DNA of 42,042 nt from an uncultured Candidatus Saccharibacteria bacterium (GTDB lineage: Bacteria > Patescibacteriota > Minisyncoccia > Phycocordibacterales > Zambryskibacteraceae): positions 158,897-200,938 of the forward strand of contig CAYHDI010000001.1 of the NCBI GenBank assembly GCA_964355645.1, given 5' to 3'. The notes beneath the pieces are model-generated. The model was not told where the DNA came from. It worked only from the letters and a program-made list of their open reading frames with translations, and did no database searches. This document shows positions 12,056 through 32,434 of this stretch, one piece after another (the stretch's first letter is position 1; each line of letters starts with the position of its first letter). The translations under genes and the position numbers were made by a program.

Positions 12056-12116
12056 GGTCAAAGACAGAAGGCCCTTCGGATACCTCAGGGTAAACGATAT
12101 AAGTCCTTCCGAGATC
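12056..12116 (+). ncRNA. Ribosomal protein L10 leader (autoregulatory RNA); boundaries approximate
   Basis: AAGACAGAAGG...TAAA...CCTTCCGAG pattern typical of L10 leaders, directly upstream of rplJ. Confidence 0.7.
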
Positions 12117-15803: not shown

Positions 15804-15824
15804 CTGCACCTAAATTTCTTTTCA

Positions 15825-15866: not shown

Positions 15867-15923
15867 CAGTACAGGCACGAGCCACACGGTCCTTTCATAC
15901 CCGCCCCTGGAGGGGCAAACACA

Positions 15924-16769
15924 ATGGCTTCCAAGAAGAAGGTTTCAACCGCGTCGTCGAAGAAGACCACGAGGTCCGCAACGAAGGCCGCGAAGCCGAG
16001 GGCTCCGAAGCCCGAGAGCAAGACAGCTGTTCAGGCACCCGCCGAACAGCAGACCGCCGAAGCTCCGACTACGGTCGAACCCGCATCGGTGGTCGAGGTC
16101 GAGGCAATCGCTCCGGCGACGGCCACGGCGACGATCGAACTGCCGTCAGCAACGAAGTCGCAGGTACGTCATGTTCCGAAAAGCGCTGTGAGCACGAAGA
16201 ATCGCCCGACCTCGGGCATCTCGGCTCTGCTCTACGAGACTCGGTTTGCTCTCGGTGCGTTCTTCGCACTCGAGTCGATCGGTACTCGTTTCGACGAGCG
16301 TGAGCGGTCTGGACTGCGCAATCTCAGGCGGTTCGGCGTCGAGCACGCGAAGAAGATTCAGGCGGGGGAGAAGGTCGAATCGGCCCAGCTCAATCGCACC
16401 ATCGGCCTCGCCCGCAAGGTGGGCGAGTTGCTCGAGACGCGCTTCTACGCGATCATGGGCGATTCCTTCATCCTGCTCGACAAGGGGCTGAAGGAGCTCG
16501 AGCAGGTCGCGCCCGAGTACCTCGTTCGCGACGCCGAGAAGATCAAGGCGTTGCGCGAGAACATGCTCAACGTGCTCGCGAAGATTGACGCGACCTACGA
16601 CGAGACGGTCGATGCGTACAAGGCCATGATGACCTACGTGCCGTCGGTCTCCGAGGAAGCCGAACAGATCGTCGAGATCGAGCGCCAGCGCAAGCGTGCG
16701 GCGGACGCGGTCAAGAACGCGGACGATCTGCTCAATGAGTTCGCCGACCTCGACGCCATCGAGTTCTAA
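15924..16769 (+). CDS. GC-rich orphan: basic low-complexity N-terminal tail plus helical domain
   Basis: 281-aa ORF, GGAGG SD, strong G/C third-position bias, own promoter and terminator. Confidence 0.85.
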   Translation: MASKKKVSTASSKKTTRSATKAAKPRAPKPESKTAVQAPAEQQTAEAPTTVEPASVVEVEAIAPATATATIELPSATKSQVRHVPKSAVSTKNRPTSGISALLYETRFALGAFFALESIGTRFDERERSGLRNLRRFGVEHAKKIQAGEKVESAQLNRTIGLARKVGELLETRFYAIMGDSFILLDKGLKELEQVAPEYLVRDAEKIKALRENMLNVLAKIDATYDETVDAYKAMMTYVPSVSEEAEQIVEIERQRKRAADAVKNADDLLNEFADLDAIEF

Positions 16770-16800
16770 CCCTCCAGCTGGGGAATAACACCCCGCGAAT

Positions 16801-16826
16801 ACCCCACAAGGTTTCGTGGGGTTTTT
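16801..16826 (+). terminator. Intrinsic terminator
   Basis: ACCCCAC...GTGGGGT followed by T-tract. Confidence 0.65.
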
Positions 16827-16847
16827 CGTACCAAATTTTGTTTCTAT

Positions 16848-16889
16848 AAAAGTCCTTGACTTTTCTTTTGATGTATGCTAGGATGAATA
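16848..16889 (+). promoter_or_regulatory. Duplicated sigma70 promoter, copy 2
   Basis: TTGACT-17-TAGGAT with TGn extension. Confidence 0.85.
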
Positions 16890-16948
16890 TAGAATGGCAA
16901 ACCCGCCATCTGTATCAGACCTCCTTTTCCCGTTTTACCGGAGGAATC

Positions 16949-17566
16949 ATGAACTTTGTGAGAGCGATTGATCTCAAGGAAGCAACCGATGTTCTCGTTC
17001 GTTTCCGCTACACCAATCAAGCGATCGTACCCAATGGGTTGCGGCAGCTTGATCGGCCCGCTGAGCGTGAGCTTATCAGCAAGCGTATGCGCGCCATGGG
17101 CGTACAGAGCGAGTCGGCGACTCACGGCAAGCAGGTCATCAACAACCTGCCGCGCACTCAGGTGGCCGTGCTTCGTAAGGGACTCGTGAACAACGGCCTG
17201 CGTCTCGTTGACGCACACACCTCGTGTGAGAAGGCCAAGCACGGCTCGAAGTACATCACCACAATGAGCTTTCGCAAGCTCAAGGAAGGCGAGCCGCCTC
17301 TCCAGATCTCGAACGAAGGGATCGATGAGCTTCGAGGGTTCTCGATGGACTCCGTCTGGACCGCCCACATCTGGTGGAATCCGAACGGGGTGATGGTCAT
17401 CGAGCTTGTCCAGCGTCAGCCGGGGGTAGTACCCCAATACGCTATCGTGGTTCGCGACGGTTGGATTGTCGCCGCTCCAACCGAACGGTTACTCGAGGAA
17501 AACGAAGAGGACATGCAGATTGGTGCACTTCTCCTCGAGGAGCTGGAGTCGCTCAGGGTGGCGTAG
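16949..17566 (+). CDS. GC-rich orphan protein
   Basis: ATG at 16949 after GGAGGA; strong terminator at 17585-17616. Confidence 0.8.
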   Translation: MNFVRAIDLKEATDVLVRFRYTNQAIVPNGLRQLDRPAERELISKRMRAMGVQSESATHGKQVINNLPRTQVAVLRKGLVNNGLRLVDAHTSCEKAKHGSKYITTMSFRKLKEGEPPLQISNEGIDELRGFSMDSVWTAHIWWNPNGVMVIELVQRQPGVVPQYAIVVRDGWIVAAPTERLLEENEEDMQIGALLLEELESLRVA

Positions 17567-17584
17567 CACAAGTTCGTTTGTTTG

Positions 17585-17616
17585 GGGCCGGTGGAGGAAA
17601 CTCCACCGGCCCTTTT
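17585..17616 (+). terminator. Intrinsic terminator
   Basis: GGGCCGGTGGAG-GAAA-CTCCACCGGCCC-TTTT. Confidence 0.9.
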
Positions 17617-17628
17617 GTTTTGTTGAAT

Positions 17629-17657
17629 TTGACAATAAGGCTTGATTTCTATACTAT
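17629..17657 (+). promoter_or_regulatory. Putative promoter restarting the S10 operon at rpsS
   Basis: TTGACA-17-TACTAT. Confidence 0.7.
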
Positions 17658-17693
17658 ATTCTCCTGAAGCTCCGTGGAGCTTTCTTTATTCTC

Positions 17694-18035
17694 ATGACTC
17701 GTTCAAGCAAAAAAGGTCCATACGTAGACCCACGAATCCTTAAAAAGATTGAGGGCAAGAAACCCGGTACCACCGGAGTGATTAAGACGTGGTCGAGAGC
17801 GTGCCAGATTGCTCCTGAGATGGTCGGTTTCACCTTCGGGGTGCACAATGGCAAAGATCATGTGGAAGTTTTCGTCACCGAGGATATGGTTGGACACCGC
17901 CTCGGTGAATTTTCTTTAACTCGCAAGTTCACGAAGCATGGAGGCAAGATGCAGAAGGACCTTGAACAAAAGAAAAAGGAAGCCGAAATCTCTGCTGCCC
18001 AAGCAGCGAAGGGAGCCACGGAGTCTAAGAAGTAG
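17694..18035 (+). CDS. rpsS: 30S ribosomal protein S19
   Basis: [19 protein letters not shown]. Confidence 0.99.
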
Positions 18036-18058
18036 AAAGTCTAAAAGTCAAAAGTAAA

Positions 18059-18427
18059 ATGAAAGAAGCGAAAGCCACATTATCAGATTACAGACAATCT
18101 CCCCGCAAAGTTCGCGGTGTGGTTAATATGATACGAGGCAAATCTATTTTGGAAGCTGAGAATCTTCTTTCGTTCGTACCGAAGCGTTCAGCTGGGCCGG
18201 TTCAGAAACTTCTCGCTTCGGCAGTAGCCAACGCGAAGAACCTTTCCATCCCTCTTGAAAATTTGATAGTGAAAAACATAAGCGTCGATGGTGGCAAGAT
18301 TCTTTATCGCCGATTACCGATGTCTAGGGGCCGAGCCTTCGTCATTCGAAAAAGAACAAGTCATGTGGGCTTGGTTTTGGGCGAGAAGTCGAAAGTCGAA
18401 AGTCGAAAGTCGAAAGTCAAAAAATAA
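18059..18427 (+). CDS. rplV: 50S ribosomal protein L22 (C-terminus from heptamer repeat)
   Basis: SPRKVR, SAVANA, RKRTSH. Confidence 0.98.
   Translation: MKEAKATLSDYRQSPRKVRGVVNMIRGKSILEAENLLSFVPKRSAGPVQKLLASAVANAKNLSIPLENLIVKNISVDGGKILYRRLPMSRGRAFVIRKRTSHVGLVLGEKSKVESRKSKVKK
18384..18420 (+). repeat. Tandem heptamer (CGAAAGT)n at the end of rplV
   Basis: AGAAGT CGAAAGT CGAAAGT CGAAAGT CGAAAGT CAA. Confidence 0.95.
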
Positions 18428-18431
18428 TTTT

Positions 18432-19109
18432 ATGTCACATACAGTTCATCCATATTCACATAGACTTGGAATCCTCCGCGACTGGAAGTCACGATGGTTT
18501 TCTCCGAAAGGCAAATACCAAGAAAATCTTCGTGGAGATATTTTGATACGTCGATTCCTCGAGAAGAAGCTCAAAGGATTTTATATGGCCGATCTTGAAA
18601 TCGAGAGAAGCGAGAAGGCTCTTCGAGTGATTGTTTCAACTTCACGCCCCGGTATGATTATCGGTCGAAGCGGAGACGGTTCGCAGAAACTCTTGATTGA
18701 AATCAAAAAACTTTTGGCCAAACACAAACTACTTAATCCGAAAGTGGAAGTGAAGCTTGATATCAAAGAAATCAAATCTCCAGAATCGAATGCAACGATT
18801 GTGGCTCAGATGGTGGTGGAAGGACTTGAGAAACGATTGCCTTTCCGCCGAGTGGCGAAGTCTACCTTGGAGAAAGTGATGGCCAACCGCGATGTTTTAG
18901 GAGTTCGATTGTTCCTCGCTGGACGACTCGGTGGAGCGACCATGAGCCGTACGGAAGATCGTCACCTCGGACGAATTCCACTTCAAACTTTCCGTGCAGA
19001 TGTGGATTATTGTTCAACCAAAGCGATTATGCCTTATGGGACAATAGGCGTGAAAGTTTGGATTTACAAGGGAGATATTTTCGAGAAAGACGCCAAAGCT
19101 CAAAAATAA
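18432..19109 (+). CDS. rpsC: 30S ribosomal protein S3
   Basis: Start MSHTVHP at 18432; RPGMIIG, GRIPLQT, YGTIGVKVWIY. Confidence 0.98.
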   Translation: MSHTVHPYSHRLGILRDWKSRWFSPKGKYQENLRGDILIRRFLEKKLKGFYMADLEIERSEKALRVIVSTSRPGMIIGRSGDGSQKLLIEIKKLLAKHKLLNPKVEVKLDIKEIKSPESNATIVAQMVVEGLEKRLPFRRVAKSTLEKVMANRDVLGVRLFLAGRLGGATMSRTEDRHLGRIPLQTFRADVDYCSTKAIMPYGTIGVKVWIYKGDIFEKDAKAQK

Positions 19110-19126
19110 TTTATTAATCCACTACC

Positions 19127-19546
19127 ATGCTGTTTCCTAAAAAAGTTAAATATCGAAAGTGGCACACGATGAGGAAGAATCCTCTGAAGGTGGGACCAGC
19201 CACTCGGGGAGTAACTGTGGCTTTCGGTTCGTTCGGACTCAAAGCTCTCGCACCCGTTCGCATTCGTTCAAATCAAATTGAAGCAGCGAGGAAAGTTCTT
19301 TCTCGTTCGATAGGCAAGACTGGTCGTCTCTGGATTCGTATTTTCCCAGACATGCCTTATACTTCGAAGCCAGCCGAAGTGAAGCTCGGGAAGGGCAAAG
19401 GGGATTTGCAAGGCTATGTGGCTCCAGTTCGCGCCGGGACAGTGATTTTCGAGGTAGATGGAGTGACCGATGTGATGGCCAAGGAGGCTCTTCGAAAGGC
19501 CGGCACCAAACTTCCGGTGAAGACTAAAATTGTTGCTCGAATTTAG
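19127..19546 (+). CDS. rplP: 50S ribosomal protein L16
   Basis: QIEAAR, WIRIFPD, GKGKG. Confidence 0.99.
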   Translation: MLFPKKVKYRKWHTMRKNPLKVGPATRGVTVAFGSFGLKALAPVRIRSNQIEAARKVLSRSIGKTGRLWIRIFPDMPYTSKPAEVKLGKGKGDLQGYVAPVRAGTVIFEVDGVTDVMAKEALRKAGTKLPVKTKIVARI

Positions 19547-19573
19547 TTCGGCAAGCTCACCATAAATAAATTT

Positions 19574-19759
19574 ATGAAAAAAACTTCTTACCTCGGACAA
19601 TCTGCACAAGATTTGAAAAAAGCTCTCACTGAGAAGAGGACTGCTCTTCGAGATTTCAGATTTGGTTCAGCTGGTTCGAAAGCGAGAAATGTGAAGGAAG
19701 GAAGCAAGCACAAGAAAGATATTGCTCGTATTCTCACTGAACTTCATAAACACAAATAA
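19574..19759 (+). CDS. rpmC: 50S ribosomal protein L29
   Basis: [15 protein letters not shown]; position between rplP and rpsQ. Confidence 0.93.
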
Positions 19760-19760
19760 T

Positions 19761-20033
19761 ATGAAAAATATGAAAAAAGAAATAACTCCGCCAACTGGCG
19801 GAAAGAAGGGGAAGGTTCTCTCGGGAACAGTCGTCTCGAACAAAATGAAGGACACGGTAGTGGTCTTGGTTGAGCGCTATGAAAAGCATCCGAAGTATGA
19901 CAAGTTCATTAAGTACAAGAAAAAGTTTAAAGCTCACGACGCTGGTAATACTGCCAAGATTGGTGATAGAGTATCAATTATCGAAACAAGACCAATTTCG
20001 AAGGATAAACATTTTAGATTAATTACTAATTAG
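19761..20033 (+). CDS. rpsQ: 30S ribosomal protein S17
   Basis: [24 protein letters not shown]; start at 19761 or 19770. Confidence 0.98.
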
Positions 20034-20050
20034 TAATTACTAATTTCTAA
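20020..20050 (+). repeat. Tandem heptamer (TAATTAC-like) at rpsQ/rplN junction
   Basis: TAATTAC TAATTAG TAATTAC TAATTTC TAA. Confidence 0.85.
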
Positions 20051-20054
20051 AAAC

Positions 20055-20426
20055 ATGATTCAACCTCGTACTATAGTTCAAATCGCTGACAACTCCGGAG
20101 GCAAAATCGGTCGTATTTTCAAAGTGCTTGGGAGTTCAAAGAAACGCTATGCAGGGATTGGTGATGTGGTTGTCCTCTCGGTCCAGAAGGCTGAACCCAG
20201 AAAGACTGTGAAGAAGAAAGATATTCTCTACGCCGTGGTGGTGAGACAGGTGGCTCCCTTTCGTCGAGCCGATGGTTCGTATTTGAGATTTGATGAAAAT
20301 GCTGTGGTGATTCTTGATAAAGCCAAGAAAGAACCTCAGGCTGGGCGTGTTTTCGGACCGATTCCTCGAGAAATTGGTGAGAAAGGCTTCCAGAAAATTA
20401 TTTCCTTAGCCCCAGAAGTGGTTTAA
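20055..20426 (+). CDS. rplN: 50S ribosomal protein L14
   Basis: ADNSG, RFDENAVV, RVFGPIPRE. Confidence 0.99.
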   Translation: MIQPRTIVQIADNSGGKIGRIFKVLGSSKKRYAGIGDVVVLSVQKAEPRKTVKKKDILYAVVVRQVAPFRRADGSYLRFDENAVVILDKAKKEPQAGRVFGPIPREIGEKGFQKIISLAPEVV

Positions 20427-20435
20427 TTTAAATAT

Positions 20436-20654
20436 ATGCACGTAAAAAAGGGAGACAACATCATAGTGCTTTCAGGAAAAGACAAAGGCAAGTCCGGGAA
20501 GATTTTGAAATCTATACCAAAGGAAATGAAAGTGATTGTCGAGGGTGTGAACATGCGGAAAGTTCACGAGAAGCCAAAGAAACGAGATGGCAAGGGGCAA
20601 ATCATTGAGAAAGCGATGCCGATTTATGCTTCGACCGTTAAATTGGTCAAATAA
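20436..20654 (+). CDS. rplX: 50S ribosomal protein L24 (short form)
   Basis: KKGD.IIVLSGKDKGK KOW motif, VEGVN. Confidence 0.97.
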   Translation: MHVKKGDNIIVLSGKDKGKSGKILKSIPKEMKVIVEGVNMRKVHEKPKKRDGKGQIIEKAMPIYASTVKLVK

Positions 20655-20682
20655 ATAGTTCGATAAACTCACTATAAGCAAA

Positions 20683-21216
20683 ATGGAAAATCTAAAAACA
20701 AAAATCAATAATGCGTTCAAAGCTCTGAAAGAAAGTCAGGGTTATAAGAACAAGATGCAGACACCGAAAATCATGAAGGTGGTGATTTCGGCCGGGGTTG
20801 GTTCGTTCAAAGACAAGAACAAGATGAAAGTTGTTGAAGATCGTCTCGCTCGCATCACTGGGCAGAAAGCCTCGGCTCGCGGAGCGAAGGTGGCTATTGC
20901 CAATTTCAAATCAAGACAAGGAGACATCATCGGCTATCAAGTCACTCTCCGTGGAAATAGAATGTATGATTTCCTTGAAAGGTTGATTCACATTTCTCTC
21001 CCTCGAACCAAGGACTTTCGGGGTATCAATCGAACCTCTGCAGATGAGATGGGGAACTATACCTTAGGCATCAAAGAACACAACATTTTCCCTGAAACCG
21101 CCGATGAAGAATTGAAGGACGTTTTCGGCCTGGCCATCACTATTGTCACTTCTGCCAAATCCAAATCCGAAGTTGTCGCGTTTCTAGAATATCTTGGGTT
21201 TCCGTTTAAGAAATAG
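20683..21216 (+). CDS. rplE: 50S ribosomal protein L5
   Basis: ITGQK, VTLRG, PRTKDFRG, GNYTLGIKE. Confidence 0.99.
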   Translation: MENLKTKINNAFKALKESQGYKNKMQTPKIMKVVISAGVGSFKDKNKMKVVEDRLARITGQKASARGAKVAIANFKSRQGDIIGYQVTLRGNRMYDFLERLIHISLPRTKDFRGINRTSADEMGNYTLGIKEHNIFPETADEELKDVFGLAITIVTSAKSKSEVVAFLEYLGFPFKK

Positions 21217-21230
21217 GGTATAATTGGTAT

Positions 21231-21755
21231 ATGAAAAAAATTATTGTTTGGGCCATTATAATAATTGTAATTTTAGGCGCCGGATATTGGATTTATAGTT
21301 CAAAAAATCAAATTCAAAAATCAGAAGCTATTGTCGATGCTATTAATAACCAAATAACAAATCCTCTAAATCCCAACGAAATAATTGAAACCAAATATGA
21401 AGCCTTAGGTCCAATTGATTCAAAAGGAAGGTTTGATACAAAAATAAGTTTATATTCAAAATCAAAAGATTCCGGAATAATGACTGTATTATTGGAAGAA
21501 TCAGCCAGCGAACACCCAAAGAATTATGTTTACGACATCCTTGGTACTCAAGGAACAAAACTAATATTTAATTACCATATGCTTGAAGCTGAAGGCCCGT
21601 GTTTTAGAGCTTGGTTGACTACACTTACACCGATTAAATATATAGATTTATCGGATAAAAAGTTGATAGTCAAAGACTATCCTGTTTCTGCAGAAAAAAT
21701 AGCAAAAGAGAAAGAATTGTTTAATCAGTGCGAAAAAGACACATTTGGGAATTAG
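21231..21755 (+). CDS. Hypothetical membrane-anchored/secreted protein
   Basis: MKK plus one hydrophobic helix; AT-rich; leaderless TATAAT. Confidence 0.75.
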   Translation: MKKIIVWAIIIIVILGAGYWIYSSKNQIQKSEAIVDAINNQITNPLNPNEIIETKYEALGPIDSKGRFDTKISLYSKSKDSGIMTVLLEESASEHPKNYVYDILGTQGTKLIFNYHMLEAEGPCFRAWLTTLTPIKYIDLSDKKLIVKDYPVSAEKIAKEKELFNQCEKDTFGN

Positions 21756-21763
21756 GGTTTTGA

Positions 21764-21786
21764 TTAGCAAGAACCATTTTTGCTAT
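21764..21786. repeat. Second copy of the TTAGCAAGAA-n3-TTCTTGCTAA palindrome
   Basis: 20/23 identical to 10961-10983. Confidence 0.8.
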
Positions 21787-21835
21787 TCACATTCATAAAC
21801 TTGACGTATATACTTTAGTTATATAATATATACAC

Positions 21836-22072
21836 ATGGTAGAACAAGTAATATTCAAAATTGATAAGGGGCTCAAGGTTCGGGCAATGAAGAAGGCCAA
21901 ATTGGAAGGTCTGTCCTTTTCGGCTGTGCTAAAGACCGCAACTCAAGCATATGTAGACAACGAGTTTGATGTGGGATTGAACTATAGCCCTAAACTAATT
22001 AGAGATTTGCGTAGAGCGCGAAAAGAACCAACAATAAGAGGCAACCTAAACGACCTCATAAAGAAATACTAA
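21836..22072 (+). CDS. Ribbon-helix-helix antitoxin (RelB/DinJ-like)
   Basis: VIFKIDKGLK..AKLEGLSFSAVL; abuts RelE-like gene. Confidence 0.75.
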   Translation: MVEQVIFKIDKGLKVRAMKKAKLEGLSFSAVLKTATQAYVDNEFDVGLNYSPKLIRDLRRARKEPTIRGNLNDLIKKY

Positions 22073-22333
22073 ATGTTAAGGATTTCCTTTAAATCCTCCT
22101 TCATAAGACAGGCCAAGAAGCTTGATGAGGAAACTTACAAAGAGCTATTGGAGAGCCTCAAACTCTTTAAAGACAGAGAAAATCATAAATTCTTAAAAGT
22201 TCACAAACTTCATGGTGAATTTTATGACTGCTACGGTTTTTCGATTACTCACAAAATAAGGGTGATTTTTTCTTACGAATCGAGCACTGAAGTAGTGCTA
22301 TGGGCCATCGGCGATCATGGTATTTATAAGTAA
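22073..22333 (+). CDS. RelE/ParE-superfamily (YafQ-like) toxin
   Basis: SFIRQAKKL, LKVHKLHG, RVIF, IGDHGIY. Confidence 0.88.
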   Translation: MLRISFKSSFIRQAKKLDEETYKELLESLKLFKDRENHKFLKVHKLHGEFYDCYGFSITHKIRVIFSYESSTEVVLWAIGDHGIYK

Positions 22334-22426
22334 AATCGTCATTCTTACTCTCAAATTATAAGGTTTGACAATAAAGGGCTTTGTGATAAGCTGAGTACCT
22401 AGCTTTTCGAAGCTTTTTTCGTAAAT

Positions 22427-22612
22427 ATGGCCAAAACATCAGTCGTAGCACGCTCAAAAAAGAAACCCAAGTTCAGCACTCGGGCTACTCACCGTTGCTT
22501 CAAATGTGGTCGAGGACGGGGCTATATGCGGGATTTCGACCTTTGCCGAATCTGTTTTAGAGAAATGGCGAATGAGGGCAAAATCCCTGGAGTGAAGAAG
22601 TCGTCATGGTAG
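22427..22612 (+). CDS. rpsZ: 30S ribosomal protein S14, Zn-binding type Z
   Basis: RCFKCGR...LCRICFRE; 61 aa. Confidence 0.98.
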
Positions 22613-22644
22613 TTCGACTACGCTCACTATAAATAATTCATCAA

Positions 22645-23031
22645 ATGGATCAAATCGCAAACATGATTATAGGACTCAAGAACGCAGGCAACGCCGGTAG
22701 AAATACTGTGGCTCTTCCATACTCAAAAATCAAAGAAAACATCGCGAATGTCTTGAAGAAAGAAGGATTCATCAAAAGCGCCGAGAAGAAAATGGTCGGA
22801 GGCAAATCCACACTCGTTGTTAACCTTCTCTTGGAAAACCGCATTCCGAAAATAAAGGGCGTTAGCCGAATTTCCAAAACGAGCAAACGTGTTTACAAGA
22901 AATCTTCAGAAATTCGTTTGGTGAAGAATGGCTACGGCGCAGTGGTGCTCTCAACCCCGAAAGGAATTTTGAGTGGCCGTGATGCTCGCAAGGAGAAAGT
23001 CGGCGGAGAAATTCTTTTCACTATTTGGTAG
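22645..23031 (+). CDS. rpsH: 30S ribosomal protein S8
   Basis: DQIANM, LKKEGFI, STPKG, VGGE. Confidence 0.98.
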   Translation: MDQIANMIIGLKNAGNAGRNTVALPYSKIKENIANVLKKEGFIKSAEKKMVGGKSTLVVNLLLENRIPKIKGVSRISKTSKRVYKKSSEIRLVKNGYGAVVLSTPKGILSGRDARKEKVGGEILFTIW

Positions 23032-23059
23032 TTCAAATTCTTCACTATAAATAAAATTT

Positions 23060-23593
23060 ATGTCACGCATAGGAAAACAAATCATTAATCTTCCAGAGAA
23101 AACCGAGATTACTATCTCGGCGGATAGAGTGTCGATCAAAGGACCTTTGGGTGAACTTTCTCTCAAAATCGATCCTATCATTGAGATCAAACTTGATGGA
23201 CGCGATGTGACTGTGGTTCCAAAGCGTATGACTCTTGAATCACGAGCCCTCTGGGGAACTTATGCTTCACATTTGAAAAATATGGTCGCGGGTGTGAATA
23301 AACCTTTCGAGAAGAAACTTATTCTCGAAGGAATTGGTTTTAAATCTGAAGTGAAAGGGGATAAAATTGTTTTCGCCCTTGGATTTTCTCATCCGGTTAA
23401 CATTGAAATCCCAAAAGATTTGAAAGTGACTGCAGAAAAAAATATCATCACTGTTTCAGGCCCGAGCAAAGAATTGGTCGGAGAATTTACAGCCAAGCTT
23501 CGTGCTTTGAAAAAGCCAGAGCCGTACAAAGGCAAGGGTATGAGATATGATACAGAAGTGATTAAGCGCAAACAGGGCAAGAAATCCGCCTAG
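23060..23593 (+). CDS. rplF: 50S ribosomal protein L6
   Basis: MSRIGK, LGFSHP, PEPYKGKG. Confidence 0.99.
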   Translation: MSRIGKQIINLPEKTEITISADRVSIKGPLGELSLKIDPIIEIKLDGRDVTVVPKRMTLESRALWGTYASHLKNMVAGVNKPFEKKLILEGIGFKSEVKGDKIVFALGFSHPVNIEIPKDLKVTAEKNIITVSGPSKELVGEFTAKLRALKKPEPYKGKGMRYDTEVIKRKQGKKSA

Positions 23594-23621
23594 TTCGACA
23601 AGCTCACTACAAACAAACAAC

Positions 23622-23936
23622 ATGACCACCAACAAAGAAAAACGAGATAGAAACCACAAGAAAATCCGAGCGAGGATTTCCGGCACCTCGAAGCGCCCTA
23701 GACTTTCTGTTTTCAAATCAAATGTTGCCTTATATGTTCAACTCATTGATGATGAAAATGGGAAGACTCTCGCGCAAGCGAAGGGTAAGGATCCAAAAAA
23801 AGTTGGTGCGGAAATTGCCAAACTCGGTTTGGTGAAGAAAATTAATCATATAGTTTTCGATCGAGGCGGATATATTTATACAGGCAAGATCGAAGCTTTG
23901 GCTAACGCAGCTCGAGAAGGAGGACTTAAATTCTAA
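23622..23936 (+). CDS. rplR: 50S ribosomal protein L18
   Basis: RPRLSVFKSN, VFDRGGY, AREGGLKF. Confidence 0.98.
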   Translation: MTTNKEKRDRNHKKIRARISGTSKRPRLSVFKSNVALYVQLIDDENGKTLAQAKGKDPKKVGAEIAKLGLVKKINHIVFDRGGYIYTGKIEALANAAREGGLKF

Positions 23937-23939
23937 AAC

Positions 23940-24575
23940 ATGGACGAAACAACAAAAACAATTCCAGAAATCATACTCCCGACGGACAAAGTCGTCGGGA
24001 CTCCGACCCCTGCGGGCGGCGGAGCGGCTCAAAACACCCGTCCACAATCTCGTGATACACGTGGAGATAGTCACGGTGGAAGAAAACCAAACCGTCGTGG
24101 ACCTCGTCGCGATGCTCGAACTAAACCCGAATTCGATCAGAAAATTGTCAGCCTCAGACGCGTGACCCGTGTGACTTCCGGAGGCCGAAGATTTGCTTTC
24201 TCCGTTTGTGTTGTGGCCGGCAACAGAAAAGGAAGTGTTGGAGTAGGACTCGGGAAGGCCGGAGATACTCCTTTGGCCATCGAGAAAGCTTTTCGTGATG
24301 CGAAGAAAAACATGATTGTGGTGAACACGACGAAGAACATGTCTATTCCTCATGAGATTGAAGCCAAGTTCTCTGCTTCGAGAGTGGTTATCAGGCCGGC
24401 TCCAGGCAAAGGAATTCTCGCCGGAAGTTCTGTGCGTACCGTTTTGGAATTGGCTGGTCTTCGAGAAGTGTCGGCTAAGCTTCTCTCAAGAAGCAAGAAC
24501 GGGATGAACAACGCTGAAGCCGCCATTTCCGCCCTCAAACAACTCGAACGTACCAAGATAAGACATTCAAAATAG
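23940..24575 (+). CDS. rpsE: 30S ribosomal protein S5 with long N-terminal extension
   Basis: RVTRVTSGGR, VGVGLGKA, PAPGKG. Confidence 0.98.
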   Translation: MDETTKTIPEIILPTDKVVGTPTPAGGGAAQNTRPQSRDTRGDSHGGRKPNRRGPRRDARTKPEFDQKIVSLRRVTRVTSGGRRFAFSVCVVAGNRKGSVGVGLGKAGDTPLAIEKAFRDAKKNMIVVNTTKNMSIPHEIEAKFSASRVVIRPAPGKGILAGSSVRTVLELAGLREVSAKLLSRSKNGMNNAEAAISALKQLERTKIRHSK

Positions 24576-24602
24576 TTCGATTAACTCACTATAAATAATT
24601 TT

Positions 24603-25040
24603 ATGCAACTTCACACTCTTAAGGCGAAAACGAAGCGTGTACTCTCCAAACAGGTTGGGCGTGGTGGTACTCGGGGCAAAACTTCCGGTCGAGGAACGAA
24701 GGGTCAGAATGCTCGTGCCGGACACAAGAATCGTCCTGAACTTCGAGACTTCATAAAGCGCTTCCCCAAACTTCGTGGACGCGGAGTTTCACCTTTCAAA
24801 TCCAAGCAGACCAAACCGTTTGTACTCAATCTTGGCTCAATAGACAAAGCTTTTAAGGCAGGCGAAGTGGTTAACCCAAAATCACTTTTGGAGAACAAAG
24901 TTGTCTCATCGAAGAATGCTTCTTCTAAAATTAAAATTCTTGGCACTGGCGAATTAACCAAGGCCCTTTCATTTGAAGGATTGATTGTTTCCAAAAGTGC
25001 AGAGAAGAAAATTGTTTCTGCGGGTGGTAAAATAAAATAG
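24603..25040 (+). CDS. rplO: 50S ribosomal protein L15
   Basis: GRGGTRGKTSGRGTKGQNAR, KILGTG. Confidence 0.98.
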   Translation: MQLHTLKAKTKRVLSKQVGRGGTRGKTSGRGTKGQNARAGHKNRPELRDFIKRFPKLRGRGVSPFKSKQTKPFVLNLGSIDKAFKAGEVVNPKSLLENKVVSSKNASSKIKILGTGELTKALSFEGLIVSKSAEKKIVSAGGKIK

Positions 25041-25064
25041 TTCGATATACTCACTATAAATAAC

Positions 25065-26336
25065 ATGAAAGAGTTTAGTTCTAAACTTAGATTAATTTTC
25101 GGAGATACAATTCTTCGAAAGAGAATTCTCATCACTCTTGGGCTTTTGGTTATTTCCAGAATCTTAGCTGTTATTCCAATTCCGGGGATTGATTCGGATC
25201 ATCTTCAAGCTTTGTTTTCAGGTAATCAATTTTTAAGCTTGTTAAATGTTTTCTCTGGTGGTGGTCTTTCTAATCTCTCAATCGTGATGCTCGGAGTAGG
25301 TCCGTACATCACGGGCTCGATTATTATGCAACTTTTGACTTTGATGGTTCCAAAGTTAAAAGCCATGTATCAAGAAGAAGGGGATGCCGGTCGTCGAAGA
25401 TTTACTCAGTACTCTCGTCTTTTGACTGTACCCCTTGCGCTTCTTCAAGGTTTCGCTTTCATTACTCTCTTTCAAAAACAATCAGTGCTTGGAATTTTGA
25501 GCCCTTCACAACTCTTCGTTGATTTGATGATTATTACGGCTGGTTCGATGCTTCTTGTTTGGGTTGGAGAACTGATTTCTGAATTCGGTGCAGGCAATGG
25601 CGTTTCTCTTATCATTTTTGCTGGTATCGTCTCAAGTTTGCCGACGAACATTGGACAATTGATTTTCACTTTTGATTTGGCTCAACTTCCGGTTTACCTC
25701 GTTTCCATTGCTCTCATCCTTATAGTTATCTTTGGAGTAGTATTTGTGACCGAGGCTGAACGTCCAATCCCAGTGACTTATGCCAAACAGATTCGAGGCG
25801 GAAATATTTCCGGCGGGGTTTCCACCTATCTTCCACTTAGAGTAAACCAAGCTGGTGTGATTCCGATTATCTTCGCCCTCTCGATTCTTCTTTTCCCTCA
25901 AATGATTTTGCAATTTCTCACTACAGCGAAGATTGTGGCTGTCGCCAACATATCAACCTCGCTTCTGGCCATTGTGAACAACCAATGGTTTTATGGTGTG
26001 GCTTACTTCGTCTTAGTTGTTCTTTTCACCTATTTCTACACCGCTATCACCTTCGATCCTGATCAGATAGCCACGAATCTTCAGAAATCTGGAGCCTTTA
26101 TTCCCGGGGTTCGTCCGGGGGATTCTACCTCCCAACACATCTCAAGGATTTTGACTCGTCTCACTCTTGTTGGAGCACTTTTCCTCGGAGCTATTGCTGT
26201 TCTGCCTTTGATTCTACGCGGAGTTACTGGTATTCAGTCTCTGGCCATAGGAGGAACAGCCCTTCTCATTGTTGTCTCAGTAGTTATAGACTTGGTGAAG
26301 AAAATCGATGCTCAAGTTTCCGCGAGAGAATACTAG
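25065..26336 (+). CDS. secY: Preprotein translocase subunit SecY
   Basis: LGVGPYITGSII, GNGVSLIIFAG, AGVIPIIFA, IPGVRPG. Confidence 0.99.
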   Translation: MKEFSSKLRLIFGDTILRKRILITLGLLVISRILAVIPIPGIDSDHLQALFSGNQFLSLLNVFSGGGLSNLSIVMLGVGPYITGSIIMQLLTLMVPKLKAMYQEEGDAGRRRFTQYSRLLTVPLALLQGFAFITLFQKQSVLGILSPSQLFVDLMIITAGSMLLVWVGELISEFGAGNGVSLIIFAGIVSSLPTNIGQLIFTFDLAQLPVYLVSIALILIVIFGVVFVTEAERPIPVTYAKQIRGGNISGGVSTYLPLRVNQAGVIPIIFALSILLFPQMILQFLTTAKIVAVANISTSLLAIVNNQWFYGVAYFVLVVLFTYFYTAITFDPDQIATNLQKSGAFIPGVRPGDSTSQHISRILTRLTLVGALFLGAIAVLPLILRGVTGIQSLAIGGTALLIVVSVVIDLVKKIDAQVSAREY

Positions 26337-26476
26337 GTATTTTCTACTATTGGTTGTAAAATATCAGGGTTAAGCTTATAAACAGCCAGATTGCATTTAG
26401 GCCAAGCCTTTGATATAATAATGGCGTTAACCCCACTGCCTTCTTGGCGCAAGCCAGGACGGCAGTTGTGCTTTAT

Positions 26477-27382
26477 ATGGAAAATCAAATTAAAAAACGC
26501 GCAGTTGTTTTTATAGATGGTAATAATTTTTACTATAGACAAAAAAATTTACTTTCCGTAAATGGGAAAATATTTAGATTACTCGATTTTGATTTTATAG
26601 GTTTTTCAAAAAATTTAATTAAATCAGATGACCTTATTGAGATCCGTTATTACATCGGAGCTGTTCAAAGACAGTGGGGAATAAATAAAGAAAAATCAGA
26701 AAAAATGTATGCTGATCAGCAAAAACTTATTGCTAAACTCCAACGACAGAAAATCCCAGTGATATTGGGCAATTTGATTCAACATCCAGACAAAAGTTTC
26801 CATGAAAAAGGTGTTGATGTTAGATTGGCAGTAGAAATGATACGTCTTGCCAGAGAAAATAAATATGATACGGCTTATCTTTTAAGTTCTGATACAGATT
26901 TAGTTCCGGCGGTGGAAGAAGTTCAACTTTTTGATAAACGCGTAATTTATGTTGGAACCTCAGAAAAACAATCTTTTGGACTGACGAAGGTTTCTGATCA
27001 CACTATTCTTCTTAGAGTAGAAGACATCGCCCCATTTACTCCCGTTCTGCATCACATGAGACTTAAACAATCTCCATTTGAAAAAATAAAAGAAGGCACA
27101 AAAACCATTGAAGTTAGGCTGTTTGACGAAAAACGGAAAGAACTCAGAATCCGTGATGAAATAGAGTTTTCTTTGATGAGTAATCCTAATGATAAAATTA
27201 GAGTAAGAATCAAAAACTTAGTTCAGCACGAATCTTTTTCTAATTTATACGAAACTTTTCCACCGGAATTATTTGGAGTAGGAAATAAAGAAAATTTTAC
27301 AAAATCAATGTACAGCATATACACCAAAGAAAATGAGAACAAATATGGAGTTTTGGGTATATGCTTAGAATACATAAAATGA
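26477..27382 (+). CDS. NYN-domain RNase fused to C-terminal ASCH domain
   Basis: IDGNNF, EKGVDV, SSDTDL (NYN); HHMRL..PFEKIKEGTKTIEVR (ASCH); ATG at 26477. Confidence 0.88.
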   Translation: MENQIKKRAVVFIDGNNFYYRQKNLLSVNGKIFRLLDFDFIGFSKNLIKSDDLIEIRYYIGAVQRQWGINKEKSEKMYADQQKLIAKLQRQKIPVILGNLIQHPDKSFHEKGVDVRLAVEMIRLARENKYDTAYLLSSDTDLVPAVEEVQLFDKRVIYVGTSEKQSFGLTKVSDHTILLRVEDIAPFTPVLHHMRLKQSPFEKIKEGTKTIEVRLFDEKRKELRIRDEIEFSLMSNPNDKIRVRIKNLVQHESFSNLYETFPPELFGVGNKENFTKSMYSIYTKENENKYGVLGICLEYIK

Positions 27383-27978
27383 ACAATCAAACTGTTATTT
27401 TCATCGGGCGTTCCGGTTGTGGCAAAGGCACTCAAGCCAAACTATTAAGGGACTGGCTCCATCAAGAAGATTCAAAGAAAAAACAAATTCTCTATGTAGA
27501 AACTGGAGACAAGTTTCGGCAATTTATTTTGGGCGAAAGTTTTTCCTCAAAATTGACGAAGGAAAATTACGAGGCGGATAAGCGCCAACCGGATTTTCTC
27601 GCGTGTCTTATGTGGGGAAATATGCTCCTTGAGGAATTTGAAGAAAATATGCATGTTGTTTTTGATGGGGTGGCTCGTTCATTAGCCGAAGCGAATCTCA
27701 TTACTACTGCGCTCGAATTTTATAAACGCGACAAACCAATTGTTATCCATTTAGATGTTTCCCGCGAATGGTCCGAAGAAAGACTCTTGGCTCGAGGTAG
27801 AACAGATGATAAGAGTCTCGCGAAGATTATCAAGAGATTAAATTGGTTTGATGCAGACGTTATGCCAGCTATTGAATATTTTAAGAAAACTCCCATGTAT
27901 AGATACATTCGAGTGAATGGTGAACAGCCGATAGAAAAGGTGCATGAAGATATTTTGAAGGCTTATGATCCGGCTTAA
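27379..27978 (+). CDS. adk: Adenylate / nucleoside-monophosphate kinase, short-LID type
   Basis: GRSGCGKGTQA P-loop, FDGVAR, RGRTDD; ATGA overlap with the upstream gene. Confidence 0.85.
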   Translation: MNNQTVIFIGRSGCGKGTQAKLLRDWLHQEDSKKKQILYVETGDKFRQFILGESFSSKLTKENYEADKRQPDFLACLMWGNMLLEEFEENMHVVFDGVARSLAEANLITTALEFYKRDKPIVIHLDVSREWSEERLLARGRTDDKSLAKIIKRLNWFDADVMPAIEYFKKTPMYRYIRVNGEQPIEKVHEDILKAYDPA

Positions 27979-28732
27979 ATCCAAACAAGAAATAGAAATA
28001 ATGCGAGAGGGAGGGAAGAGACACGCTGAAATTCTTCGAGAATTGGCGAAACTTTGTGAGCCCGGGACTTCCACCCTTATTCTTGAAGAAGAAGCTTTGC
28101 GGATGATAAAACAAGGCGGAGACAAACCCGCTTTCCTCGGCTATACTCCCGCGGGGGCCAAACGGGCCTATCCTGCAGCCCTGTGTGTCTCTATAAACGA
28201 TGAAATAGTGCATGGTATCCCAAACGAGGCAGAGAGGATTCTAAACGATGGAGACATCGTTTCTCTCGATTTAGGCCTTATACACAAAGGACTTATTACT
28301 GATTCGGCTATTACTGTGGCTGTAGGAGCCATAGACGATGAATCAAAGAAACTTATAAATTTTACTAAACGGGCACTCGAAGCGGGAATCTCTGTGGCTC
28401 GTCCGGGCAATACCACCGGAGACATTGGTCAAGCCATTAATGAAGTTGTAGAACAAACGAAATTTTCTTTGGCCGAAGATCTTGCTGGACACGGAGTGGG
28501 ATACAAAGTGCATGAAGATCCATTCGTTCCGAATTTCGGAATGAGTGGCGAGGGAGAAAAACTTGTTCCTGGAATGGTGATTGCCATAGAACCAATGCTC
28601 AATGTTGGAAAGGGCTCAATCAAACTTTCCAAAGATGGTTATACTATTCGAACCAAAGATGGTTCACGCAGTGCCCACTTCGAACATACGGTTGCTATTA
28701 CAGAAAAAGGAAATATAATACTTACTCTATGA
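27965..28732 (+). CDS. map: Methionine aminopeptidase type I
   Basis: SINDEIVHGIP, GHGVG..HEDP, AIEPM, SAHFEHT. Confidence 0.99.
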   Translation: MIRLKSKQEIEIMREGGKRHAEILRELAKLCEPGTSTLILEEEALRMIKQGGDKPAFLGYTPAGAKRAYPAALCVSINDEIVHGIPNEAERILNDGDIVSLDLGLIHKGLITDSAITVAVGAIDDESKKLINFTKRALEAGISVARPGNTTGDIGQAINEVVEQTKFSLAEDLAGHGVGYKVHEDPFVPNFGMSGEGEKLVPGMVIAIEPMLNVGKGSIKLSKDGYTIRTKDGSRSAHFEHTVAITEKGNIILTL

Positions 28733-29997: not shown

Positions 29998-31396
29998 ACC
30001 AACACTGACATGTTGGGGAGGAGTGGGTTCAGTCACTGGAGCGAATTTTCTTTTTGAAGTTGGTGATCCTTCGACTCCGCTCAGGACAAGAAAAATTTTG
30101 ATTGATTGTGGTTTGCTTCAAGGTGTTTCAAATGAAAATACTATTAATGCTTTAAAATTTGATTATGACCCCGCTTCGATTGATTTTCTTTTTATTACTC
30201 ATGCCCACGCTGATCATATAGGCAAAGTTCCAAAACTGGTGAAGGATGGGTTCAAGGGAACAATTTATTCCACTCCGGAAACCAAGGCCATATCTGAACT
30301 AATGCTGGCTGATATGGCCAAGATAAATGAAGGCAATGCCAGGGCTTCGCAAACAATACCTCTGTATACGGCTGTTGATGTTGAGAAATCTATGGGTATG
30401 TGGCAAACAATCAATTATCATGAAACAAAGGACTTTGATGGTTTTAAACTTGAACTTTTCGATGCGGGGCACATCCTGGGTTCAACCATGTACAAATTCA
30501 CTTTTCTTTACCCCGAGCAAGGTCGAGGGGCTGAGCAGTCTATCGTTTTCTCTGGTGATATAGGCAATTCTCCCTCGCCTATTCTTCGAAGCACAGAGGT
30601 CATTTCCGGGGCTAAATATCTACTCATGGAGTCAGTGTATGGAGATAGAAATCACGAGTCAAAATCAGACAGAGACGCGAAGTTTAAGGCGGTTATAAGT
30701 GAAGTGATAGAGAAAAAAAGCACGCTCCTTATTCCAATTTTTTCTCTTGAACGCACGCAAGTGATTCTTTACGAACTTAATTTGCTTTTCGAGTCTAAAC
30801 AATTGAAATCCATCCCAGTTTTCTTAGATTCACCGCTGGCTATTCATGTGACCGAAGTTTATGAAAGGATTACCAAAGATTATAACAATGAGATTAAAGC
30901 AGAAATCAAAGGCGGTGATGATATTTTCAAATTTCCAAAGCTGAAAGAAACTGCGCAAGTCAGGGATTCAAAAGAAATCATAAATGTGCCCGGGCCAAAA
31001 ATTATTCTAGCTGGTTCAGGAATGTCGACTGCTGGTAGGATTTTGGACCATGAACAAATTTATTTGCCAGATTCGAATACTGTTTTGCTTCTTGTGGGAT
31101 ATCAAGCCCCAGGTACGCTCGGTCGAATGCTTGATGAAGGAGCAAAGGAAGTGATGATTCATGGGCAAAAAATAAAAGTAAACGCGAGGGTAGATAAAAT
31201 CGACGGTTTCTCTGCCCATGCTGATTCGAACCAATTGGTTGATTTTGTTTCTCATACAGCGAACACTTTGACAAATGTTTTTGTGGTGATGGGCGAGCCT
31301 AAATCTTCAATCTTTCTCGCCCAACGTTTGAATGACGAACTCGGAGTGAAGGCAATTGTCCCTGAGAGAGGGAAGAGATACGAGTTGGATTTGTAA
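29990..31396 (+). CDS. Metallo-beta-lactamase / beta-CASP RNase
   Basis: LIDCG, THAHADH, AGHILG, ESVYG, GFSAHAD; start MNKPTL at 29990. Confidence 0.95.
   Translation: MNKPTLTCWGGVGSVTGANFLFEVGDPSTPLRTRKILIDCGLLQGVSNENTINALKFDYDPASIDFLFITHAHADHIGKVPKLVKDGFKGTIYSTPETKAISELMLADMAKINEGNARASQTIPLYTAVDVEKSMGMWQTINYHETKDFDGFKLELFDAGHILGSTMYKFTFLYPEQGRGAEQSIVFSGDIGNSPSPILRSTEVISGAKYLLMESVYGDRNHESKSDRDAKFKAVISEVIEKKSTLLIPIFSLERTQVILYELNLLFESKQLKSIPVFLDSPLAIHVTEVYERITKDYNNEIKAEIKGGDDIFKFPKLKETAQVRDSKEIINVPGPKIILAGSGMSTAGRILDHEQIYLPDSNTVLLLVGYQAPGTLGRMLDEGAKEVMIHGQKIKVNARVDKIDGFSAHADSNQLVDFVSHTANTLTNVFVVMGEPKSSIFLAQRLNDELGVKAIVPERGKRYELDL

Positions 31397-32434
<1,038 letters not shown>

Follow-up and report, generated by a model that had tools for sequence, protein, structure and literature searches.

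The 42,042-nucleotide (nt) stretch of DNA analyzed here ("the window", to which all positions refer unless a contig such as C1 or C2 is named) comes from the genome of an uncultured Candidatus Saccharibacteria bacterium, which we call G000. It carries a run of ribosomal-protein genes in which one 23–24-nt hairpin element recurs at seven junctions and in most of them provides the stop codon of the upstream gene. Is this element a signal with which the organism ends one cistron and begins the next, or a short repeat that has settled where it does no harm? Our analysis favors the second answer: the element is probably a selfish, miniature hairpin repeat that resembles repetitive extragenic palindromes (REPs), and its supply of stop codons is probably a by-product of the site at which it inserts rather than the mark of a dedicated reinitiation signal.

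Seven copies at ribosomal-protein gene junctions

A first-pass annotation of the window had reported seven copies of the element, and all seven were present when the region 19400–25200 was read again. The pattern TAGTTCGANNNNCTCACTATAAA, with up to 3 mismatches allowed, found 6 copies where 0.02 were expected (100 dinucleotide-preserving shuffles, with a shuffle maximum of 1), and the seventh, at 22610, was caught by the 24-nt form of the pattern, for which the shuffles gave an expectation of 0.00. From the ends of the open reading frames (ORFs) and Pfam scans, the flanking genes encode L16, L29, S17, L14, L24, L5, S14, S8, L6, L18, S5, L15 and SecY. The same evidence confirms the annotated role of the element's TAG as the stop codon of the upstream gene in six cases out of seven (L16, S14, S8, L6, S5 and L15); the exception is L24, which ends in a TAA at 20652–20654, one base ahead of the element. 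The next ATG had been placed 4–11 nt beyond the unit, and the distances are indeed 7, 4, 11, 8, 8, 7 and 4 nt. The copies are listed below together with a further, weak candidate; E is the expectation value given by the covariance model described in the next section.

19544..19566, + strand: copy 1, between L16 (rplP) and L29 (rpmC); TAG is the L16 stop; E 1.3e-4
20656..20678, + strand: copy 2, between L24 (rplX) and L5 (rplE); the trailing triplet is CAA, not a stop; E 2.0e-5
22610..22633, + strand: copy 3, between S14 and S8 (rpsH); 24-nt form with the centre TAC; TAG is the S14 stop, with a TAA at 22634–22636; E 1.5e-5
23029..23051, + strand: copy 4, between S8 and L6 (rplF); decayed core TTCAAATTCTTCA; TAG is the S8 stop, followed by TAA; E 4.4e-4
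23591..23613, + strand: copy 5, between L6 and L18 (rplR); TAG is the L6 stop; the trailing triplet is CAA; E 1.3e-5
24573..24595, + strand: copy 6, between S5 (rpsE) and L15 (rplO); TAG is the S5 stop, followed by TAA; E 7.7e-6
25038..25060, + strand: copy 7, between L15 and SecY; TAG is the L15 stop, followed by TAA; E 1.4e-5
12072..12094, + strand: possible degenerate copy (weak), with CCC/GGG arms and the loop TTCGGATACCTCA, in a 220-nt spacer between two + strand ORFs; E 0.024

A dispersed family with compensatory arms

The unit of 23–24 nt consists of a 3–4-bp stem, whose arms vary in sequence but remain complementary, a conserved loop of 13–14 nt, TTCGAYnn(n)RCTCA, and a 4-nt tail (TAAA or CAAG). 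The first-pass annotation had proposed a covariance-model scan, and we built such a model on eight window copies, the eighth being an intragenic copy at 30067 that is described below, with the hairpin as structure. The G000 assembly comprises 549,535 bases in 9 contigs, with ~41% G+C, and is 100% complete by marker count. At E <= 0.03 the model found 26 copies in this 549.5-kb genome. A relaxed regular expression found 20 copies genome-wide, and a weight matrix together with a looser search for the core led to a second set with different arms. Altogether there are six fully complementary arm sets: beside TAG/CTA we found TCC/GGA, CCC/GGG, TAC/GTA, TCA/TGA and TGA/TCA.

Covariation was already suspected for the bases that flank the variable centre, and the window does contain 3 C..G, 3 T..A and 1 A..C combinations at these positions. 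Genome-wide, this Y9-R12 pair is C-G in 13 and T-A in 9 of the 26 matches, a total of 22 against a shuffle mean of 11.3, and none of 2000 shuffles reached 22. Watson-Crick pairing holds for arm pair 2 in 24 of 26 copies (four pair types) and for arm pair 3 in 25 of 26 (three); in neither case did any of 2000 shuffles score as high. A search for the core that was blind to the arms recovered the same copies as the structure-based model.

The description of the element as structured thus holds for the covariation statistics of its arms, but not for its behavior as free RNA, in which the 4-bp A/U-rich stem is marginal. The fold z-scores of the seven 42–50-nt windows around the junction copies are −2.45, 0.09, 0.18, −0.28, 1.18, 0.19 and 0.05, so that just one of seven folds better than shuffles do, and no more than two have the TAGT/ACTA stem in their minimum-energy structure. 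We also compared the element by eye with known RNA modules. Its loop contains the TTCGA of a tRNA T-loop, but the flanks form no T stem, and we therefore rejected a T-arm mimic; a kink-turn or another named module was rejected as there is no second GA.

Sense orientation at gene boundaries

A crude gene call gave 683 ORFs covering 92% of the genome, with TAA, TAG and TGA as the stops of 393, 164 and 126 of them, respectively. Of the 26 copies, 20 are found at gene ends or between them, and 25 have the sense orientation with respect to the local genes, the exception being a copy between a terminator and a promoter on contig C3. Along contig C1 the orientation is + at 27.6 kb, − at 33–46 kb, + at 125 kb, − at 134 kb and + at 171–189 kb; it thus switches at least four times with gene direction and shows no replichore pattern, which led us to reject a replication-strand bias as its cause.

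Of the 20 copies found by the regular expression, 13 begin with the triplet that ends the upstream gene in frame (12 TAG, 1 TGA), and 18 have an ATG that opens an ORF at −1 to +12 nt. At copy C2 23299 there is no start codon, and what comes next is a terminator hairpin and a convergent gene. The downstream genes, as read from the sequence rather than from Pfam, include recA, S18, S4, S9, rbfA and TatD-like and FtsW-like genes, so the element is enriched in ribosomal-protein genes without being restricted to them.

Probable insertion directly 5′ of the resident stop

The triplets at the two ends of the unit point to where it inserts. In two other genomes of the genus, G021 and G001, the first triplet is the in-frame upstream stop in 17 of 22 copies (13 TAG, 2 TGA and 2 TAA). 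Across G000, G001 and G021, wherever the element's own triplet is the operative stop, the triplet that trails the 23/24-nt unit is also a stop in 27 of 29 copies, mostly TAA, versus 1 of 7 copies for which a resident stop lies 3–10 nt upstream (Fisher p = 9.5e-5). For this two-by-two table 19 of 55 regular-expression rows were set aside, namely chance matches within ORFs, cases with upstream frames of <60 amino acids, and two true copies in which the upstream ORF ends 19 nt into the element; a TGA/TCA-armed copy at C5 14309 was missed by that expression. The trailing stop is found with both tail types (TAAA and CAAG/CGAG). This difference indicates that the unit is inserted directly 5′ of the resident stop, and the displacement of that stop explains why the resulting 27-nt stretch bears stops in all three frames. 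We read the TAA at 19567–19569, after copy 1, as the displaced original stop of L16. An empty and a filled site can be compared directly: G004 has TCAAAA-TAA-ATTTT-ATG where G000 has TCAAAA-[23 nt]-TAA-TTTT-ATG. A TA target-site duplication was considered and rejected, being indistinguishable from the displaced stop and absent at the copies that follow a stop.

Since the neighboring spacer bases would be equally harmless as landing sites, so precise a landing implies a preferred target, in addition to filtering by selection in a genome that is 92% coding. We infer a rule of insertion 5′ of TAA/TAR. Such an asymmetric target on the coding strand would explain the copies at junctions, though not obviously those in coding sequence. 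Selection by itself does not explain the placement, which leaves some room for an RNA-level function.

We envisage the following history. The element would multiply by insertion, and copies would survive only where they are harmless in so densely coding a genome, at gene boundaries and in tolerant protein loops. A typical copy would land immediately 5′ of a resident stop in the sense orientation; its first triplet, TAG, would become the working stop, and the old TAA would be pushed 23–24 nt downstream, where it would be visible as the TAA in TATAAATAA. Copies would then decay by substitution and deletion, often leaving a relic TAG stop. Because the supply of a stop follows from the insertion site, it is not evidence of a dedicated reinitiation signal.

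Turnover among relatives

Of the other 21 genomes of the genus, 12 have the TAG-armed form. The 19 genomes sampled from elsewhere in the family and order yielded one match between them, which is probably due to chance; the TAG/CTA-armed variant is genus-specific. We extracted the five junctions of S14-S8-L6-L18-S5-L15 from 22 genomes. Most orthologous junctions consist of a TAA and 1–20 nt, free of any element. The S8–L6 junction shows a series of decay states: the copy is perfect in G021 and G001, mutated or partly deleted in G014, G012, G000, G005, G006 and G013, and reduced to short "TAA ttc..." remnants in G016, G011 and G018, with nothing recognizable in the rest. At L6–L18, relic TAG stops occur with no recognizable element in G017, G009 and G013, and S5–L15 is filled in G017 and empty in G004, G010 and G001. 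G018 is an unpublished genome for which the depositors' permission is needed; it contributes the S8–L6 remnant and a decayed L18–S5 copy, and while the L18–S5 row rests on this genome alone, our conclusions are unchanged without it.

Turnover is visible even between close relatives. In a four-protein tree G001 is the sister of G000 (support 100/99), and three of four junctions are in different states in the two: G000 has intact copies at S14–S8 and S5–L15, where G001 has a degraded copy and none, respectively, and at S8–L6 the copy of G000 is decayed and that of G001 intact. At a site where G019, the sister of G021, and the next relative, G007, have the same short spacer of unrelated sequence, G021 itself carries a perfect copy, which indicates a fresh arrival at an already used site. 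The S8–L6 states are scattered on the tree, requiring at least four changes, and cluster no more than shuffled states do. This is the behavior of a repeat that comes and goes, not of a conserved signal. The first-pass annotation had itself named random placement in the genome and absence from the same junctions in relatives among the marks of a purely selfish repeat. We found the junctions empty in most relatives, but the placement is not random, with copies in the sense orientation at gene boundaries.

Copies inside genes

Copies with arms other than TAG lie in frame within genes of G000:

30067..30090, + strand: TCC/GGA arms, in frame and sense, in the gene of a beta-CASP metallo-beta-lactamase RNase (29990–31396); E 1.4e-3, this copy being in the training set
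YraN-like gene: in-frame copy directly after the start codon, giving MK-PFDKLRAS
tRNA-synthetase-like gene: in-frame copy directly after the start codon, giving M-PFDETQGK
Membrane protein gene: two in-frame copies, after MKIN
RecR-like gene: in-frame copy in the zinc-finger loop, giving PSTSSGQ
A further gene: in-frame copy near the C-terminus of the protein

The copy at 30067 adds the peptide DPSTPLR, seven codons that are missing from the orthologues in G004, G010, G009, G017, G006, G002, G014 and G012; G011 and G015 have a decayed 8-codon relic at the same position of the RNase. Together with the 26 dispersed copies, the compensatory arms and the presence/absence differences, these in-frame copies bear out the suggestion of the first-pass annotation that a REP-like element has spread locally. 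The spread was probably by active insertion rather than by gene conversion, and the copies appear to be neutral.

The RNase loop, between LFE(V/T)G and KILIDCG (30050–30100), is an insertion hot spot: 5 of 20 congeners have differing inserts of 6–8 codons. Such inserts were seen in G001, G011, G015 and G020, and two of them look like decayed copies of the hairpin element.

A shared loop in many phyla

The element belongs to a wider family. A scan of one genome per species (596 Gb) with the 16-mer of the TCC/CCC-armed form found at least 120 loci in many phyla. A few hundred chance matches are expected in 596 Gb, so the raw count is uninformative and the information lies in the flanks. The 140 instances among the 16-mer matches listed include 133 with C at −2, a position that extends the stem and was left open in the query; in 122 of the 140 the pair after that is Watson-Crick (C-G 89, T-A 25, G-C 8), compared with a shuffle mean of 73 and a maximum of 84. 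Within the phylum, the 13-mer core TTCGACARGCTCA occurs in 151 of 401 sampled genomes, with 648 matches versus ~20 for a reversed control and up to 60 in a single genome. In five genomes of other phyla, chosen because they had at least one 16-mer match, the core counts are 40 (Sphingomonas), 93 (Chitinophagaceae), 29 (Leptolyngbyaceae), 366 (Dehalococcoidia) and 150 (Microbacterium), against 0–1 for the control.

These relatives differ in form and arrangement. Copies in other phyla occur in both orientations, often as inverted pairs ~40 nt apart or in tandem arrays. In G410 the stem has 8 bp, and dimers and arrays occur in G410 and G440; in G350, of the same class as G000, a GGTAG or GTGG head lies next to a GCC stem, with outer TAG/CTA pairing. 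The TAG/CTA form of the genus looks like a trimmed derivative of this wider family. Whereas REPs are described as species-specific in the accessible part of PMC6006769, the 13-nt loop here is common to many phyla.

The family seems to have escaped the catalogues that we searched. Rfam gave five chance-level matches for window positions 14000–32000 at E <= 5, none at an element, and only a signal recognition particle RNA and a tRNA at 18 carrier loci of other phyla at the gathering score. In open-access text we found no description of the core, its reverse complement or the encoded peptides; the figures and supplements of PMC3733652 and PMC6006769, beyond the parts available to us, may list the family.

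The search for a mobilizing partner

REPs are associated with Y1 transposases, and the first-pass annotation had suggested looking for such an association; no consistent Y1 partner emerged. G000 has three Y1 genes, encoding proteins of 218–233 amino acids with NHFH/NHYH and Y..(K/L)NP-type motifs, which score 48 bits against the NCBIfam REP transposase model (cut-off 80). They fit subclass 2.1 of Quentin et al. (PMC6006769), for which the accessible part of that paper reports no REPs. Of the 22 genomes of the genus, 11 match Y1; G001, with 25 core matches, has no Y1. Y1 was found in four of five high-copy versus two of five zero-copy genomes, and the 60-copy G410 has no PF01797 match. In the 401 genomes of the phylum a Y1 match is present in 93 of 151 carriers versus 93 of 250 non-carriers (odds ratio 2.7, p = 3e-6), a ratio that ignores phylogeny and genome size and in which PF01797 also counts IS200-type genes. 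A tblastn search with the three Y1 proteins at 120 listed carrier loci of other phyla gave no match, an uninformative result given that REP transposases are single-copy. We rejected a Y1 transposase of the REP-associated kind (RAYT) as the mobilizer, since it is neither necessary nor shown to be involved (there are carriers without Y1, and no linked copies). A large parent element was likewise rejected: the two halves of the unit were not found apart, and its 3′ part, CTCACTATA, occurs 12 times, 11 of them inside elements.

Two of the three Y1 genes of G000 are flanked by other palindromes. One, unrelated to the element, is the perfect palindrome TAGCAAGAACSGTTCTTGCTA, often with CC/GG outside it, which has ~13 sites in G000, including 10962–10981 and 21765–21784 (degenerate) in the window and C2:988, 1609, 1970 and 2697; these last four cluster around the Y1 gene at C2:1985–2686, and two of them flank it directly, in a REPtron-like arrangement. 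The other, GTTGACACCGAGTGTCAAC, is found at C1:111582, C1:112248, C2:16855, C4:31237 and C2:139274; it lies on both sides of the Y1 gene at C1:111558–112220, and in degenerate form it also precedes the Y1 gene at C2:9057.

Translation and transcription start signals

The 16S rRNA gene of G000 runs off a contig end, with ~1 kb assembled, and the Rfam match extends only to position 1520 of 1533. Beyond helix 45, the 3′ terminus (C4:47340–47460, − strand) reads GGAGTAATTCAATTTG, with no CCUCC. Upstream of 423 ORFs that begin with ATG there is a preference for T at −15, G at −14 and TATAAT at −12 to −7, TATAA being 7.9-fold enriched with 94 occurrences. A TGnTATAAT so close to the ATG is what marks an organism that has no anti-Shine-Dalgarno sequence and whose first cistrons are mostly leaderless. 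Given that lack and the scarcity of GGAGG, internal cistrons must start without Shine-Dalgarno pairing. Among the literature matches listed, neither the loss of the anti-Shine-Dalgarno sequence nor leaderless transcripts are described for this phylum.

Weighing the explanations

Such a background makes it natural to ask whether the hairpin has been domesticated as a cis-acting RNA signal, bound in the sense strand by a factor or by the ribosome and serving termination-reinitiation, processing into monocistronic units or RNA stability. The first-pass annotation had raised the possibility of such a role, with termination-reinitiation, processing and protein binding as its candidates, and several observations agree with it: 25 of 26 copies are sense, the spacing from stop through element to ATG is tight (−1 to +12 nt in 18 of 20), ribosomal-protein operons are enriched in three species, the 16S 3′ end has no CCUCC, GGAGG occurs only seven times upstream of the 423 ATG genes, which have TGnTATAAT at −15 to −7, and a loop kept across phyla implies a conserved recognition partner. 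Most congeners, however, run the same gene pairs on a TAA and 1–20 nt, and the copies that exist decay and are deleted; one precedes a terminator and a convergent gene, others lie inside ORFs, and in other phyla both orientations, inverted pairs and tandem arrays occur. Nor do the RNAs themselves give much encouragement. The free hairpin is no stabler than shuffles in six of seven windows, and the elements show no complementarity beyond shuffles to the 3′ 1007 nt of 16S rRNA: for the seven copies z ranges from 0.01 to −1.84, and the best value is reached by 9 of 200 shuffles, the 5′ third of the gene being unassembled. Against the 3′ 75 nt alone, one copy of seven stands out weakly (6 of 200 shuffles reach it). 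With junctions empty or decaying in relatives, a copy next to a terminator and no 16S pairing, we consider domestication unlikely. A site maintained by the host for a universal DNA- or RNA-binding factor (a topoisomerase, a nuclease or a nucleoid protein), which spreads by conversion between copies, would explain how the 13-nt loop can be invariant in distant phyla while arms and flanks differ, how genomes without a Y1 match can have high copy numbers, and, if conversion is involved, the perfect copy of G021 amid its relatives' unrelated spacer. It sits poorly with the 250 of 401 phylum genomes that lack the core and the congeners with roughly background counts, which make no universal need evident, with the decay of the copies, and with in-frame insertions into essential genes that look accidental; we regard it as very unlikely. 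Least probable by far is an internal promoter, either of the phage (T7-class) type or a −10-like box that drives a short-leader transcript for each cistron. The 3′ part, CTCACTATA, with the A-rich sequence after it presumably resembles the T7-class consensus, and TATAAA lies 4–11 nt before the ATG, where the −10 boxes of this genome typically occupy −12 to −7. Yet the last base of the box is A or G, whereas the −10 consensus calls for T there, and none of the 15 sigma-70-like sites in 19000–25600 (shuffles, 11.0 ± 3.2) is at an element. The T7-like form was dropped because the ATG lies at variable distances (−1 to 12 nt), some copies are inside ORFs and G000 has no PF00940 match, the last being weak evidence in that the search matched in no control genome either.

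A REP-like selfish repeat thus remains the probable explanation, and several points weigh against it. The mobilizing enzyme was not found: no copy lay within 1.5 kb of any of 10 Y1 loci, which come from eight genomes, and PF01797 is matched in two of the five high-copy genomes of other phyla but not in the remaining three. No new insertion was directly seen, nor were empty and filled alleles found within one species. The S5–L15 copies of G000 and G017 are near-identical though the proteins are only 77% identical, which fits selection, conversion or re-insertion. Ribosomal-protein operons are over-represented in three species, with 7 of the 20 copies of G000 within 5.5 kb and several in G001 and G021. 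All seven copies in spacers after a stop, and ~9 coding copies, are sense, which harmlessness alone does not predict; this strict orientation leaves room for an RNA-level function or for a strand-specific mechanism. Finally, the model that picked the 26 matches contains the structure, so the pair counts lean its way, and as the copies are related to one another the shuffle tests overstate the significance.

Comparison with known systems

Rickettsia palindromic elements (RPEs), at ~100–150 bp, are several-fold larger than the unit described here. Like RPEs and in-frame miniature inverted-repeat transposable elements (MITEs), it is palindromic selfish DNA that is tolerated in essential genes, where it encodes short hydrophilic peptides (PSTSSGQ and PFDKLRAS in our case). 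Unlike them, it has inverted repeats of only 3–4 bp, no parent insertion sequence and no clear target-site duplication. The short arms, and a TA/TA direct repeat that is equally explained by the displaced stop, set it apart from MITEs as usually defined. The position of the element also recalls the viral reinitiation elements of the TURBS (termination upstream ribosomal binding site) type, short motifs just upstream of a stop/start junction that are proposed to tether the ribosome. TURBS-type reinitiation needs complementarity to the small-subunit rRNA, and no pairing above shuffles was found here with the assembled part of the 16S rRNA. An intrinsic terminator is not indicated either, as none of the 12 terminator-like sites in the region is at an element on the + strand.

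In the broad sense the element is a REP: a short dispersed palindrome with many copies, most of them intergenic. REPs are 20–40-bp palindromes that lie mostly downstream of ORFs, between unidirectional or convergent genes (PMC3733652), and Di Nocera et al. (2013, PMC3733652) describe, in the part accessible to us, that a REP terminus can supply the TAG stop of the upstream ORF and that some REPs lie within ORFs. The GTAG-tagged REPs of that paper share with our element the short dispersed palindrome between unidirectional genes, the supply of TAG, the copies within ORFs and the dimers and arrays. They differ in their stem, which is 6–13 bp rather than 3–4 bp; moreover, the loop of our element, of 11–13 nt, is conserved across phyla. 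Their tag is a conserved 5′ GT[AG]G at the foot of the hairpin. The TAG of G000 lies within the stem, and a G precedes it in only 2 of 17 TAG/TGG-armed copies; in G350 a GGTAG or GTGG head stands beside the stem. The donation of TAG stops by REP ends is therefore already published, and our headline observation has a precedent. With the REPIN/RAYT systems (Nunvar 2010; Bertels & Rainey 2011; Quentin 2018, PMC6006769, as far as accessible) the likeness lies in a hairpin repeat and Y1 (HUH) genes in one genome, and in the inverted pairs ~40 nt apart in other phyla; the difference is that the element has no REPtron arrangement. In Escherichia coli, ribosomes stall at REPs that lie within 15 nt of a stop, and the upstream gene is translated less (cited in the accessible part of PMC12306157). 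Here too the hairpin abuts the stop, and an effect on upstream termination is conceivable, but with an A/U-rich 4-bp stem of ~−0.9 kcal/mol the stalling of ribosomes is unlikely. What seems new, as far as our searches reach, is the loop that is invariant across phyla, the lack of a RAYT partner and the signature of the displaced stop.

Other features of the ribosomal-protein region

The spc operon has three additional ORFs between L5 and S14 (21231–22333), of 174, 78 and 86 amino acids. The first two have no Pfam match; the third has a weak, sub-threshold match to the YafQ toxin (E 2.5e-4, 21.7 bits against a cut-off of 30). The 78- and 86-amino-acid ORFs overlap stop to start (TAAATG), as in toxin-antitoxin pairs, and a promoter-like site, TTGACG-17-TAATAT, lies ahead of them. 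The leader of S14 (22334–22426) contains a promoter-like pair, TTGACA and TGATAAGCT, and then a hairpin with a T-run, AGCTTTTCGAAGCTTTTTT, right before the ATG. A box like TGGTAAGCT is also found upstream of S14 in several congeners, and the leader has no Rfam match; it may be an attenuator or a ribosomal-protein leader. The S5 protein has 211 amino acids (gene 23940–24575), with an N-terminal extension of ~64 residues ahead of the Pfam S5 domain, and L15 follows S5 directly, with no L30 gene in between. This adjacency, together with the size of the genome and the sizes of its neighbors, suggests a member of the ultra-small Patescibacteria/CPR group.

Significance

For the genus, the displaced stop amounts to a precise and testable insertion rule, which explains the relic TAG stops in its ribosomal-protein operons. 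A genome of only 0.55 Mb tolerates ~26 copies, some of them in essential genes (tRNA synthetase, RecR-like and RNase), which bears on the relation between streamlined genomes and selfish DNA. Gene callers may misplace starts and stops at element sites.

For the wider family, ultra-small genomes share the loop with Proteobacteria, Actinobacteria, Bacteroidota, Cyanobacteria and Chloroflexota, and no Y1 gene tracks the family, which implies a widely shared recognition partner. A bolder proposal, which we hold to be quite unlikely and put forward for its consequences, is that the TTCGACARGCTCA mini-hairpin is a pan-bacterial mobile element without a transposase of its own, whose invariant loop is read by a conserved host machine or by an enzyme not yet recognized as such. 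If this were true, its insertion would be aimed at the boundaries of translation, 5′ of stops and just after starts, and always on the sense strand; a route of insertion coupled to transcription or translation would be a new kind of mobility, and the element would be a hidden source of TAG stops and of short peptide insertions in essential proteins across bacteria.

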